Positions 29,923 to 35,750 of a stretch of DNA of 40,025 bases are shown piece after piece. Position 1 is the stretch's first letter. Each line of letters opens with the position of its first letter. Both the position numbers and the translations under genes were made by a program. The notes beneath the pieces are model-generated. The model was given only the letters and a program-made list of their open reading frames with translations, searched no databases and had not been told where the DNA came from. Location: the NCBI GenBank assembly GCA_013115125.1, contig JABANN010000316.1, positions 1 through 40,025 of the forward strand. The letters run 5' to 3'. Source of the stretch: Perkinsus olseni. Taxonomy: Eukaryota.

Positions 29923-32900
29923 ATGTCCGCTGTCGCATCCGTACAGTTGGAAAATCCATCGTCATCATCAACAACATCATCAAATTGGACGCCCTCAAGA
30001 AGTAAAGATGAAGTTCAACAGTTCAACAGCCTTTCATCGACAACAGTGACGCTGACAGCGCCTCGGGATGTAATATGACGAGCAGAGATCGACCTAAGAT
30101 TATCGGAAATTCTTGGTAGTTGTTTTATACTCGGAGGGAAAGCGATGTTATACTCGATGTTTTAATATCGATTTTTCGTGAAAAAATAGCGTAAATTTTC
30201 AAGTTTAGTCCGTCACCAGAGTCGACCTAAGATTCTCGCGAAAAATTTCGGTGTTCGTTTGATAATTGGAGGGGAAGTTATTCCCCTCCGCGAAATTTAA
30301 CGGATTCTTTTTGGGGGAGGAAAGGAAATTCTCGCGAGATTTCGAGTATTTTCGGCATAATTTTGCCTGCTGAAATTCATGAGAATGACGCATCTTTGCG
30401 CACATTAAAGATTCCTTATTACAGGTCTTGATGATATCGGAAAATTATCGAGACACTTTTGGCTACTTTCCGGGCTGAGGGTTTTCTGGAAAGTTTCGCC
30501 TCGCATTCAGAAAAAGTGTGATATCTTTGCGCACAGCGAAGATTTTTTCTTGTGCAGGTTTTAAATTCACAGCTTGATCGTCTATGGAGTATGCTGACTG
30601 AGCACAACGGACAGCTTGCTGATGTTTGGATTTATTCAGCAGAGTATCCGGGGGCGCGGCCGACCGCACTGCCAGCTCATAAGTAATCGAAAGGTCCCCG
30701 GTTCGATTCCCTCAGACGTCGTTTCTAGGTGCATTTTAGCGGCTGCTTGCCCGGCGTTAATTAGAAAAATAAATCCGCGACGAACTAGTAGCTGTACTAC
30801 TGCTGATTCTGCTTCTGAAGAAATCGATGGAGCGAAAAAAAGGGAAAATCCCGAAGAAACGGTCGGAGTTCGGCGACTCGATTTTGCAGAGGTTGCCCCG
30901 ACCTGGGCTGTGATGTCCTTGCTGAGGTGAAAGATACGCGGCGGAGCGAAGCGATTCATGTTTGGTAATTTTAGGTATATTTATGGTCAGACTGTTGAAG
31001 TAGAATCTGGGAGGTTGAGCGTGCTCTACACGCTTGCGAAAGATATGCAGTGCCAGGGTTTGGAGAATGACTGTCTGGAAAAAATGGGGAATTTACGAAA
31101 AAATTCGGTAATAAGCGGAGAAAAATTTCCTTTTTTTTCCGGTCAGAGTTTTTCGCTTGAAGTGTTGAATGCTCGGAAAATTATTTTTCTGCGGAAAAAT
31201 TATGTTCGAAGGAATAATTTTTCGTGAATATCTTCTTTCAGGTCGATTGTGAAGAAGACGGAAAACTAGGAGCTCGAAAAGATACGCCGGAAGTCGGAGA
31301 GCGGCAGAAATCGCCCAAATCTGACAGCGGTGGTAGTGACGATTTGCGGAAAATTTGGTATGGCCGAATTTTATTTTTTTTAGATGTCGAGCCGGTAGTG
31401 GCTGAGAGTTCCGTAGATGCTGTTGCATCAACTTCGTCTTCTGACCGGAGCGAGGGGGTATCCAAGGTCGAAGCTTGCTCTTGGGTAGGTCGAAAGATAC
31501 GTCTGGGATGAATCGAATTTTGGTTTGCATCTCGGCGGAGGAGAAGCGTATTTTACGTTGATCCTGGCTGGTGGCAAAAATTCCAGAAATTTCGGGAAAA
31601 ATTAATAAAATAAAAAGAAGGAGAAGCTTGGTTTGAGAATATGAACTTCGTACGTATCGAGTTATATCAAGCGAAGGGTATCTTAGGTCGAAGCTTGCTC
31701 TTCCCAGAATGATGCCGTCAAGACAGAGCCGACTGACAGCGAATCTTTACAATTTCGTGGCGCAGTGACGGAGGGAAGTGGACTAAAGAAGAGCGTGAAC
31801 AGCTCCAGCACTGGCAGCTTTTTGGACATGGTAAATTATTTTTCGGAAAATTTCTAGCTGAGCGATTTTTTTCAGATCCGGAATTCTGGTTCGTTACCCA
31901 AGCTGGATCGTGGTCGGATGATCAACACTCCGGGCGCTTTCGACAAGAAGTAAAATTAGCGAAATTATGGGGGAATTAGATGATCGTTTCGGAACAATTT
32001 CGATGAATTTTAGGAGAAAATATTGGTACTTGCGAGAATTTATAGTCCCACCGTCAGAAAGATTTTTGTAGATTAGCCAATTTTTTACGCGTTTTATGCG
32101 CTAGCCAGTCATGAATTTCCAATGATTATCAGATGGTTTATCGCAAAGCTTAACAATTTACGGAATTTTTTGTTTTTTTTTCCCGAAGATACGAGCTTGT
32201 TTCGCCTGAAGAAGGTGGTATCTTGGGTGAAGGCATGAATGGAGCGGTGAGGTTGGCAAAAGATCGATTTACCGGAGAGCAGGTAGGGAGAAAAAAAGAA
32301 GAATCTTTTCTGCGAGGTCGATCGATCTGGTTTTGTACTTCATGGCATTTGAAAGTAGTCTTATTCTTTGACGAAGGAGAGTATCTTCTGAATCGATCAG
32401 CTGATGGATTTTGGGTCAATGAAAGTATTTCTGATGAGGGAGTTATTTTTCTCGGAAAAGTATAATTTTTCGTTTTTTTTCAGGTTGCCGTGAAAACTCT
32501 GAGTTTGGTAAACTTGAGCCCGATGAAGCGGGACATGCTTTACGATGAGATTAATATTTATTTACCATTATCTCATCCAAATATTGTAAGAAAAAATGAA
32601 AAAATGGAAACATGAAACGCTTCGCTCCGCTAACAGGTCCGCTTGAATGAAGTTTACGAAGAGCCGGGAGATAGAATTATATTAGTGATGGAATCTTGTA
32701 TGGGAGGTGGGTTCTTTCGTGGAGGTCGAGGTTGCAAGAAAGATACGCAAAGATACGTTTTTTTGTTCAGGCGAATTATATGAAAGGTTGGCCAAGCTAA
32801 ATCGTTACAGTGAGCGCGACGCCGCGAAGATTCTCCGGCATATCCTTTACGCTGTGAGCTACCTACATTCCCTCAATATTTGTCACCGAGATTTGAAATT

Positions 32901-35750
32901 GGAAAATTTTGTGTACGAAAAAAATTTTCGGAAAATTTTCGGTATTTTTTTGATCAGATATACGGATGATACTGAAGATTCGCGATTGAAATTGTGTGAC
33001 TTCGGTTTTGGCACGATCGTGCATGGCGAAGGTCCGGACGGCGATTCTCCTTTGACTGCTGCACTTGGCTCGGTAAGTACGTTTAAATTTTCCGGAAAAA
33101 TTTCGGGAATTTTCCGATTTTTCTTGCGTTTTCATTTCTACCGTCGGCATGGATTTCGGGGAAAAATGAATTTCTACGGCAGTCACTTTGTTTGGGGAAA
33201 AGAAAATCGCAACTTCGGAAAATTCAGGAAAAATTTCCGTCTGAGAGTTCATCGCCGGTGAGCTGAATGAGGGGAAAACTCCCTGCTGTTCGACGATCAT
33301 TTATCCTTGTATAAGTATCTCATGTTGACCATAGGCAGACGCAGAATAAAAGATATTTCAGGTTCACTATGTCGCTCCGGAAGTCCTCGAAGGAAGATAC
33401 GGCCTTCAATGCGATATGTGGTCTGTTGGAGTCATCTTGTATATGCTGCTCAGCGGCACGCCGCCCTTTGACGGCTCGGACGATCGCGAAGTTGTAAATT
33501 TACCGAAAATTTTCGGAATTTTCCGGAAAATTTTCTTCAGGCGGAAGCGGTTCGGCACGCACCGTTGAAGTTGAGCGGTTCTCGGTGGGATTGCATATCT
33601 TCGAGTGCGAAAGATTTGGTGAGGAATCTTTTATGTCGGGACCCGACGAAGAGGTTGACGGCAACGCAAGCGCTGCAACATGAATGGTGTGGGAGTAAGT
33701 GGGGCGGAGGTTCGATTTTTGTTAAAAATTATTCACAAAAATTTCGGAAAAATTTCGGTATTTTTAAAAATACCGGCGGTATTTTTTTTAATTTTTTTGA
33801 GGGAAAAATATTCATTTTCGATGAGGGAAGAGCAATCTTTAGGGTGTGGGAGATTCATTTTTTTGCTATTTTTTGCGGGAGGTGATTTTATCGATCATTC
33901 GGGCGCGCGCGTTGGATTTGATCGATTTTTTGTGAAAATTTTATGCACGTCAAATGTTCTCTTGCGATTTTTTCTTCAAAATTTGGCGAGAATATAAAAA
34001 ATTTTCGAGAATTTTGTATTTTTTCAGGTACGGATATCTTGAAGTTGAACACTGCATCAAACGAAATCGATGTTGACGTTTTAAGAACGATGCACGCATT
34101 CACAAGATGCTCGGCAATCCAGCGGGTAAGGTGTCGACATTTTCTGCCACTGCCATGCTTCAACCTTGGATACCATTACTGGGCGAAGTAGGAAATTTCC
34201 CGTAAAACTCATCCTAAACTTTTTCATAGAACTTCGTGATTTTGTGAGACTTTTCCGGAATTTTTCCCGTAAAACTTATCGTAATTTTTTTGACACGTTC
34301 CCGGATTTTTTCCGCAAAATTTATATTTTTTTCAGGCGGCATTGGGCTTGATCGCGCAGAAAAGAGGAGATGATTTCGTGGGAATTGATGATAAGTTGAA
34401 GTCGATGGAGGACACGTTCAAGCGAATGGATACCAATCATGATGGTGAGCAGGAAAAATTATTTTTTTCGGAAACTTTTCGGAAAATCGGGAATTTTTGC
34501 ATATCTTTCATGCAAGTTTTGCATATTTTAAGAAAAATAATTTCCGGATTTTTTGGGAAAATTTTTGGTGAATATATTTTTGTGAGGATGTGACGTATCT
34601 TAGGTTGAAGATAGCATTGGATATTTATCCGCTGTGCGCGTCTCTAAATACTGGTTTCTCGTGACGATTTAGCGCGAGTAAAAACGTCCGGATTTGTTGT
34701 AAAACGCTGAGTAGTTTTTTTCCTCAGGCGTGATCACGCTGTCGGAATTTGAGAACGCCGTCCGCAGTCATGTCGAGATGGGCGAACATGAAGCGGAGAA
34801 AATCTTCGGGGACATCAGCAGCTGCAGTTCAACGGTATCTTTGGCACTTGTAATTGCCACGCTTCGACCTTGGATACCTTTTCAGGTTACTCAGTCAGAA
34901 CCAGTGATTCACTATAGCGACTTTCTGGCTGCAACTATTTATTCTTTACGGAACAGGGAATCTCAGGTTGAAGGTAGTACTTAACGAAAAGCGAATCTTT
35001 TGAAGATATTCCATCATTGACACGGGTCAACCTAAGATACTCCGGAATCGAGCAGTCGTCCTCGAGGCGAGAGCTCTACTATTTGGCATTGGAATTCTGA
35101 AGATATTCGAAGTGTATACGAAGCCTTCGATACCGAAAGGAAAGGGTAAGAAACTTTTCACTGCGCCACGAAATTTGTCACTGCGCCACGAAATTTGTCA
35201 CTGCGCCACGAAACTTGTCGCTGCGCCACGAAATTATTTCGTCAGTTACGTGACGAAGGAAGATCTTCTGAGGGTTCTGGGTTGCGGTGGTCGGGAGCTG
35301 GAGCGAATCTTAGCCGCGGCTGGATTCGACCCCAAGCACACGCATCGCATAGATTTTGATGATTTCTCTAAGTAAGAGATTGGAGTATCGTGAGAGTCTG
35401 TAACTGACACGGTTCGACCTAAGATACGTCTATGGGGTATCTTTAGGTTATTGAATTGTCAAAATAAAAGTCTCATAGAGTTTCCTCGACCAGACAGCGC
35501 CTCGGAAGACGAGCTATTGAAGCAAACTAAGGTGAGCTATTCCGAGTTGTGCACGCTTGAAGCTAAGATACCATTGATTCAGGCTGCGGAGTTTCTCGAA
35601 CGGGATGCGTATTTTGCTGGGTTGGATGATTACGACGAGGAGCTCCTCGCCGCCGAGGGTGAGCTCGCCCGACCAGACTTCCCTTCGGATACCACGGCTG
35701 TTGAGCAAGAATTTGGGGAACTTTTACGTTACGATGACTTAATTTTCTGA
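29923..35750 (+). CDS. Calcium-dependent protein kinase with N-terminal BTB/POZ domain, about 20 exons
   Basis: BTB: ADVWIY...[11 protein letters not shown]...LLRYIYGQ...[17 protein letters not shown]. Kinase: [43 protein letters not shown]-hands: DTNHDGVITLSE, DTERKGYVTKED plus degenerate ones. A further exon at ~35942-36040 is possible. Confidence 0.88.
30688..30711 (+). pseudogene. tRNA 3'-half fragment within a 46-nt intron (30683-30728)
   Basis: CGAAAGGTCCCCGGTTCGATTCCC resembles the variable loop and T-arm of eukaryotic tRNA-Val. Confidence 0.65.
35159..35235. repeat. 20-bp-period tandem of CACTGCGCCACGAAATT in a CDPK intron
   Basis: Four units; same core as 2596-2873. Confidence 0.93.

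Follow-up and report, generated by a model that had tools for sequence, protein, structure and literature searches.

A BTB/POZ domain and a calcium-dependent protein kinase joined in a single spliced gene of Perkinsus

The stretch of DNA analysed here (in the following, the window) comprises the 40,025 nucleotides (nt) of contig JABANN010000316.1 (assembly GCA_013115125.1) of Perkinsus olseni, a member of a genus of mollusc (shellfish) parasites that branches near the base of the dinoflagellates. On its forward strand the window carries a gene whose product joins an N-terminal BTB/POZ domain, via a long acidic linker, to a calcium-dependent protein kinase (CDPK) module. We hold with high confidence that BTB domain and CDPK are fused in a single Perkinsus gene and transcribed as one mRNA. 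The BTB domain most likely makes the kinase a dimeric or a docked one.

Gene structure and transcript

The gene consists of 25 exons with a coding sequence (CDS) at 29923-36186 (+) for a protein of 937 amino acids (aa) (Table 1). The reading frame is open over all 937 codons and is preserved by all 24 introns. The transcript has no ATG before the one at 29923, upstream of which lies an in-frame TAG (29917-29919). The many short GT-AG introns identify the window as eukaryotic nuclear DNA. A search of public sequencing data yielded 24 runs that contained about 0.3 of the sampled words; two are recorded as RNA-Seq. RNA contigs from four runs (X1, X2, X4 and X10) were mapped to the window at 27500-37500. 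Of the 30 splice joints across the mapped contigs, the 15 listed are GT..AG joints: 30069>30558, 30682>30729, 30926>30975, 31107>31242, 31332>31384, 31484>31687 (X1 and X2 only), 31830>31876, 31949>32189, 32282>32484, 32585>32637, 32706>32771, 32912>32958, 33072>33362, 33493>33541 and 34444>34728. The largest span is covered by a contig of run X2, whose 2765 nt equal two leading letters plus the 2763-nt sum of the exons from 29875 to 36036; by this match in size, one contig covers everything from the BTB domain through the linker, the kinase and the EF-hand domain to the larger part of the tail. The gene is nuclear, transcribed and cis-spliced into one mRNA.

An earlier reading of the same DNA, made from the sequence alone, had traced exons from the ATG at 29923 through a BTB domain and a linker into the kinase, in frame and with GT-AG boundaries, and the RNA contigs of all four runs concur. 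It had taken BTB and CDPK to be one gene, and a single spliced mRNA does join them. As an alternative it had considered separate transcripts with a spliced leader added before the kinase exons; in all four runs the kinase is cis-spliced to the linker by the joint 31949>32189. Only the 3′ end had to be revised. The stop at 35750, where the gene had been taken to end, lies within the intron 35659-35941, and the CDS continues to 36186. We infer the joints 35658>35942 and 36036>36088 from the RNA contig size, from the P. olseni kinase model P0008 and from a tblastn map of the 990-aa P. marinus protein P0002. This map supports the last two exons, as does P0008, which is 98.6% identical through the last residue. 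Contigs from all four runs start at 36085 and are read as 3′ untranslated region (UTR). Selecting the 3′ exons so as to give the longest possible open chain led to wrong models, which homology to P0002 and P0008 and the RNA contig size served to correct.

In X4 and X10 the contigs have 21 nt fewer in the part upstream of 32771, within the linker, and do not contain the joint 31484>31687. The partial P. olseni protein P0001 is devoid of seven linker residues that match this difference of 21 nt. The difference, at 31484-31708, is an in-frame alternative splice in the linker. A stretch of about 18 nt is duplicated at both exon edges of this alternative splice.

At the 5′ end, position 29875 is preceded in the contigs by two to seven non-genomic letters, of which an adapter and TCA are visible in X1. 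Spliced leaders are used in Perkinsus, according to the available part of a study on them (PMC3101222). The letters TCA of X1 do not match the P. marinus spliced leader as given in that part, which ends in ...CAAG, and no AG precedes 29875. The letters in front of 29875 may stem from a library artefact, from a tiny exon further upstream or from trans-splicing.

Among the introns between 30070 and 35941, two size classes can be told apart, one of about 45-64 nt and one of about 200-490 nt. Recurring AT-rich repeats of the CGGAAAATTT type and short palindromic elements fill the introns of the long class.

Table 1. Features of the BTB-CDPK gene and its upstream flank, in window coordinates
Feature	Position	Strand	Evidence
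Three AATTTCGTGGCGC copies	29685, 29765, 29828 (29685..29838)	+	Within 190 nt before the mRNA 5′ end
5′ UTR	29875..29922	+	Contigs of 4/4 runs begin at 29875
Exon 1, start codon and Ser/Thr-rich N-terminus, 49 aa, without Gly2	29923..30069	+	Translation, RNA joints
Exons 2-4, BTB/POZ domain	30558-30682, 30729-30926, 30975-31107	+	RNA joints, Pfam BTB in orthologues
Exons 5-8, acidic Ser-rich linker and conserved pre-kinase segment	31242-31332, 31384-31484, 31687-31830, 31876-31949	+	RNA joints
Exons 9-15, Ser/Thr protein kinase domain, residues 339-606	32189..33694	+	RNA joints, Pfam, PDB alignment
Exons 16-21, junction (autoinhibitory helix) and calmodulin-like domain	34028..35371	+	Homology, GT/AG sites, RNA contig size, joint 34444>34728
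Exons 22-25, C-terminal tail of about 115 aa	35447-35531, 35583-35658, 35942-36036, 36088-36186	+	P0008 and P0002 homology, RNA contigs
Stop codon	36184-36186	+	Gene model
3′ UTR	36187..36733	+	RNA contigs unspliced from 36085 to 36725-36733

Besides P0001, P0002 and P0008, the comparison includes two partial P. chesapeaki proteins (P0003 and P0005), a second P. marinus protein (P0004) and two more P. olseni kinase models (P0009 and P0010). The 937-aa gene product is 98-99% identical to P0008, P0009 and P0010, and 72% identical to P0002. Several of these models bear on the question whether the fusion could be an artefact, i.e. a small BTB gene and a neighbouring CDPK gene joined by read-through transcripts or by overlapping RNA assembly. 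The ends of Perkinsus gene models are unreliable: P0002 includes a V-SNARE piece that is located 7 kb upstream in the window, P0003 and P0010 continue into the downstream gene, and the P. olseni annotation splits the gene into separate models. All of this would be in line with an artefact. Against it stand the uninterrupted frame of 937 codons with 24 in-frame introns, and the canonical joints at the linker exons and from linker to kinase in four of four runs. The pre-kinase segment is, moreover, 88% conserved and homologous to the lead-in of Toxoplasma gondii CDPK1 (TgCDPK1), and the kinase-only models begin within the N-lobe of the kinase. We therefore regard the artefact reading as largely refuted and its probability as very low.

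Domains of the protein and their occurrence in Perkinsus

The BTB/POZ domain extends over residues ~50-197 and contains a Ser/acidic insert of about 35 residues (102-137) before strand beta4. In Pfam searches the partial proteins P0001 and P0005 score 30.3 and 34.2 bits against PF00651 (BTB), and P0002 scores 24.6 bits, all above the curated cut-off of 20.5 bits. Exon 4 of the window alone scores 14 bits, below this cut-off, as it encodes one part of a domain that three exons share. P0001 and the window protein are 92% identical over 321 aligned columns and 93-100% identical inside the BTB domain. In an Atlas feature search, 21 of 30 matches fell into a single BTB family set, the top score being 0.90. 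The window BTB also has the N-terminal helix that is characteristic of dimeric BTB domains. A Ser-rich, acidic linker of about 140 aa separates the domain from the CDPK module. The window BTB is a divergent BTB/POZ domain, and the linker is disordered, acidic and Ser-rich.

Conservation is unevenly distributed along the protein. Identity to P. marinus and P. chesapeaki, respectively, amounts to 87% and 79% in the first half of the BTB domain, 67% and 55% in its second half, 49% and 50% in the linker, 88% and 88% in the pre-kinase segment, and 87% and 90% in the kinase domain. Since the first half of the BTB domain is conserved like the kinase while the linker falls to about 50%, the BTB domain is under constraint.

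The kinase exons of the window hold the Gly loop and the VAVK, HRD, DFG and APE motifs, all intact. Single window exons match the Pfam Pkinase family with E-values of 2e-10 to 5e-9, and the models P0002, P0003, P0008 and P0009 reach 198-229 bits. Residues 387-873 of P0002 align to residues 33-503 of TgCDPK1 (E 3e-70), over kinase, junction and four EF-hand positions, and the pre-kinase segment is homologous to the N-terminal lead-in of TgCDPK1. EF-hand_7, EF-hand_6 and EF-hand_1 lie above their Pfam cut-offs in P0008, and EF-hand families also match P0009. Judged by these motifs, the kinase is predicted to be catalytically complete and of CDPK type.

The four EF-hand loops were inspected by eye. 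That of EF1 is canonical (D-x-N-x-D-G, followed by I and E at positions 8 and 12). EF2 is devoid of Asp at position 1 and of Gly at position 6. In EF3 and EF4, ligand positions are taken by Lys or His, and position 12 by Asp. P. olseni and P. marinus share a conserved C-terminal tail of about 115 aa, which has an aromatic/hydrophobic end with a final Cys. The last peptide of the tail, encoded at 36088-36186, contains much Trp, Tyr, Phe and Pro and has the terminal Cys in both species; it may be a signal for membrane association or lipidation. At the other end of the protein, residue 2 is not Gly, and hence no myristoylation signal is found at the N-terminus.

Among the known systems nearest to the window protein are canonical apicomplexan CDPKs such as TgCDPK1 (PDB 3ku2, 3hx4, 3i79, 4ieb), with the same order of CAMK-type kinase, junction helix and four-EF-hand domain, and the two align end to end over this part. 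The window protein differs from it by 338 additional N-terminal residues (the BTB domain and the long acidic linker), by the lack of an N-terminal acylation signal, by a canonical loop in EF1 alone, by about 25 residues inserted between the EF pairs, and by the conserved C-terminal tail. The atypical kinases TgCDPK7 and PfCDPK7 carry a PH domain and N-terminal EF-hands. As far as the part of the literature at hand goes, they share with the window protein the principle of a CDPK core with a lineage-specific N-terminal domain, the accessory domain here being BTB/POZ.

A search with the exon encoding the second part of the BTB domain returned P0001 (94% identity over the exon) and P0002 (69%). 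The latter, named 'calcium-dependent protein kinase, putative', holds BTB, Pkinase and EF-hands in one model, and P0001 holds the BTB domain, the linker and the first kinase exon. In P. chesapeaki the same order is distributed over two models, with P0005 ending at the end of the BTB domain and P0003 starting in the linker and running through the kinase. The fusion is conserved in the three Perkinsus species P. marinus, P. olseni and P. chesapeaki, in the last of these by two partial models.

Outside the genus we found no counterpart. A HMMER search with P0001 against 1.84 billion representative proteins (E <= 0.001) returned five proteins, namely P0001, P0002, P0005, a P. chesapeaki fragment of 37 aa and one unrelated BTB-BACK-SPRY protein. 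Residues 125-990 of P0002 retrieved 54 proteins at E <= 1e-30, the top six of them from Perkinsus. BTB is absent from the 25 Pfam families listed for the 48 non-Perkinsus relatives, beyond which there are 8 single-member families, and in the nearest non-Perkinsus relative (P0012) no BTB domain was detected at E <= 1. In a metagenome scan, 109 stretches matched BTB peptide patterns, and none of these was a relative by tblastn. In a phylogenetic tree all Perkinsus sequences form one clade (support 100/100), separated from other CDPKs by a long branch (1.16). Within it, P0004 groups weakly (80/83) with P0002. P0004 begins just past the expected end of the BTB domain, and is either a truncated model or a copy from which the BTB domain was lost. 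P0008 starts at position 44 of the Pkinase profile and is truncated at its N-terminus.

The sequence-only reading did not know this architecture from described CDPKs, and allowed that it might be common in databases. The latter is not what was found in the data reached, as the query with BTB and linker returned Perkinsus proteins and one unrelated BTB protein. Its novelty stands in part: no paper found describes the architecture, and the protein has already been deposited as a putative CDPK of P. marinus. In the literature searched, we found no description of a BTB-CDPK or of any BTB-kinase. A paper on apicomplexan kinomes (PMC3239843) places P. marinus in a CDPK subfamily and does not mention a BTB domain in the portion available. 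The BTB-CDPK combination is real, limited to Perkinsus in the data reached, and undescribed though already present in databases.

Neighbouring genes and a dispersed motif

Upstream of the gene, exons at 21846-22954 (+) are similar to the V-SNARE N-terminus of P0002 (tblastn E 4e-20). As these exons lie 7 kb upstream of the start of the BTB-CDPK gene, P0002 probably merges two genes. Between the two, an open frame at 28495-28818 (+) resembles a Myb/SANT-type repeat by eye, and RNA contigs cover 28836-29837. Downstream, the next gene occupies 36858-37217 and beyond (+), about 125 nt past the CDPK 3′ UTR, and its RNA contigs start at 36858 or 36877. P0003 and P0010 merge this gene with the CDPK, and it is their C-terminal parts that it matches. 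In P0010 a weak DcpS_C/HIT-like match reaches 18.3 bits, where the cut-off is 24. The window furthermore contains an assembly gap of 10 N at 19361-19370 and an (AAC)n microsatellite at 1-71.

A dispersed motif, AATTTCGTGGCGC followed by AGTGAC or GCGGTC, occurs at 22 sites of the window, where 0.68 would be expected. Sites are located at 2600-2871, 21112, 21286, 25017, 29685-29838, 31753, 35163-35233, 36498, 38158 and 38664. Two of these regions hold arrays, with a 40-nt unit repeated 6.5 times (2613-2873) and, inside an intron, a 20-nt unit repeated 4.3 times (35150-35235). One copy lies inside coding exon 7. The three copies in front of the mRNA (Table 1) may be a candidate promoter-proximal element. 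RNA contigs of other loci break at copies of the motif. Loose contig ends at 29702, 31751, 31770 and 35157 were considered as transcript ends and rejected; they fall on copies of the motif and are read as coming from other loci.

Possible roles of the BTB domain

Dimerisation was modelled with ESMFold2 without use of our alignment, on two copies of residues 1-160 of P0001 and three controls. The dimer reached ipSAE values of 0.56, 0.57 and 0.56, as compared to 0.02 for the best control. The runs share at least 59% of contacts, with a partner pLDDT of at least 77. The modelled interface is formed by the N-terminal helix together with the helix that follows the AHK motif. In calibration, the ipSAE mark was reached by 21 of 30 solved same-chain pairs and by none of 23 single chains; among eukaryotes, 17 of 29 pairs attained it, but only one of the seven pairs without an older solved relative, and none of 30 single chains. 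As only one of these seven pairs passes, the pass of the BTB dimer may be a memory of solved BTB dimers. The model speaks for self-association without proving it. We consider the chances about evenly balanced that dimerisation is the main role of the BTB domain.

In this case the BTB domain would mainly be a self-association module, giving a constitutive dimer in which two CDPK units are carried by flexible linkers. Perhaps together with the C-terminal tail, it would replace the acylated N-terminus by which CDPKs are usually targeted. Such an arrangement would favour trans-autophosphorylation and the engagement of targets at two sites. Ca2+ would switch the kinase by way of the CDPK activation domain, with a sensitivity that is probably altered because EF1 alone has a canonical loop.

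The BTB domain could instead serve as a hetero-typic docking domain, binding another BTB protein or a non-cullin partner and thereby placing the kinase, with self-association being secondary. CDPKs are commonly targeted by a Gly2 acylation signal, and since this signal is missing here some other targeting device is to be expected. That the first half of the BTB domain is as conserved as the kinase (79-87%) would fit a specific partner surface, and BTB heterodimerisation is documented in the accessible part of a preprint (bioRxiv 10.1101/575910). On the other hand, there is neither a known nor a predicted partner, the homodimer model stood up to its controls, and targeting could rest on the conserved C-terminal tail. 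We consider docking as the main role unlikely.

The sequence-only reading had proposed a calcium-sensing kinase tied to Cul3 ubiquitination. In such a scheme the BTB domain would recruit Cullin-3, and the Ca2+-sensing kinase would act as substrate adaptor of a Cullin-3-RING ligase (CRL3) or would have its own stability set by Cul3. The domain belongs to PF00651, the family holding most Cul3 adaptors. Many PF00651 domains are not Cul3 adaptors, however, such as those of BTB-zinc-finger proteins and of SLX4. The BTB-BACK-Kelch proteins, SPOP and KEAP1 share with the window protein the PF00651 domain and an N-terminal helix of the kind used for dimerisation, and the homodimer modelled here is the form CRL3 adaptors take; yet the window protein shows no BACK/3-box and, by an uncertain alignment, no phi-x-E at the aligned loop, and its would-be substrate part is a kinase rather than Kelch, MATH or SPRY.

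Both points weigh against Cul3 binding. In the part of a structural study at hand (PMC3616122), phi-x-E in the alpha3-beta4 loop of KLHL3 and SPOP is described as the main Cul3 contact, and the 3-box of the BACK domain as necessary for full Cul3 affinity, as in SPOP. Pfam finds no BACK/3-box in P0001, P0002 or P0005. Directly after the last BTB helix follows low-complexity linker sequence, which is coil in a low-confidence model. The alpha3-beta4 loop is replaced by the poorly conserved Ser/acidic insert (47-60% identity between species), and the positions aligned with phi-x-E read I-N-P, I-D-P and L-D-T in the three species, without Glu, in a by-eye and uncertain alignment. The BTB domain of P0005 matches PDB chains weakly, namely SLX4 (E 0.097), CG6765 (0.18) and ZBTB32 (0.6), amid chance matches; SLX4 and ZBTB32 among these likewise speak against a Cul3 adaptor. 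Links between Ca2+ sensors and BTB adaptors do occur in plants, according to the available parts of reports on BT2, which has a calmodulin-binding domain, and on MdCML15-MdBT2 (PMC8774732, PMC11101318). In these, calmodulin or CML proteins regulate BTB-TAZ adaptors of CRL3, such as BT2; sensor and adaptor are separate polypeptides there, and no kinase domain is involved. Taken together, the proposed tie to Cul3 found no support, and we judge recruitment of Cullin-3 by this BTB domain to be unlikely. In a more specific version ('write and destroy'), the Ca2+-activated kinase would phosphorylate a bound target, and the BTB dimer would recruit a cullin without a 3-box, leading to ubiquitination. 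We rate this version as quite improbable; if true, the substrate-receptor module of a CRL3 would here be a kinase.

A dimeric or docked CDPK hence remains the likeliest reading of the fusion, and several points count against this picture. With regard to the transcript, the joints 35658>35942 and 36036>36088 are absent from the listed joints, 15 joints and 38 loose ends lie beyond those listed, and the RNA contigs are assemblies, with no single molecule spanning the whole transcript. An additional internal start may yield a kinase-only product. With regard to the protein, the AlphaFold2 model of P0001, built on an alignment of four sequences, has a mean pLDDT of 45 and is too poor for fold comparison. 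The pass of the dimer model is of the textbook sort and may be due to nothing more than likeness, and dimerisation is also compatible with Cul3 binding, as CRL3 adaptors are themselves dimers. Finally, control by Ca2+ may be weak or lost, the loops of EF2-4 being non-canonical.

In alveolate parasites, CDPKs act as central switches for motility, secretion and development, and they are regarded as drug targets since they are absent from animals (PMC3239843, available portion). How their variable N-termini direct these kinases is only partly understood. The value of the present finding is moderate, as its parts are known, the fusion already stood unremarked in public protein sets, and the Cul3 reading is without support. 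A CDPK bearing a BTB domain nevertheless represents a natural experiment in the regulation of kinases by oligomerisation or docking, and the fusion, found in Perkinsus only, would serve as a marker of this lineage.

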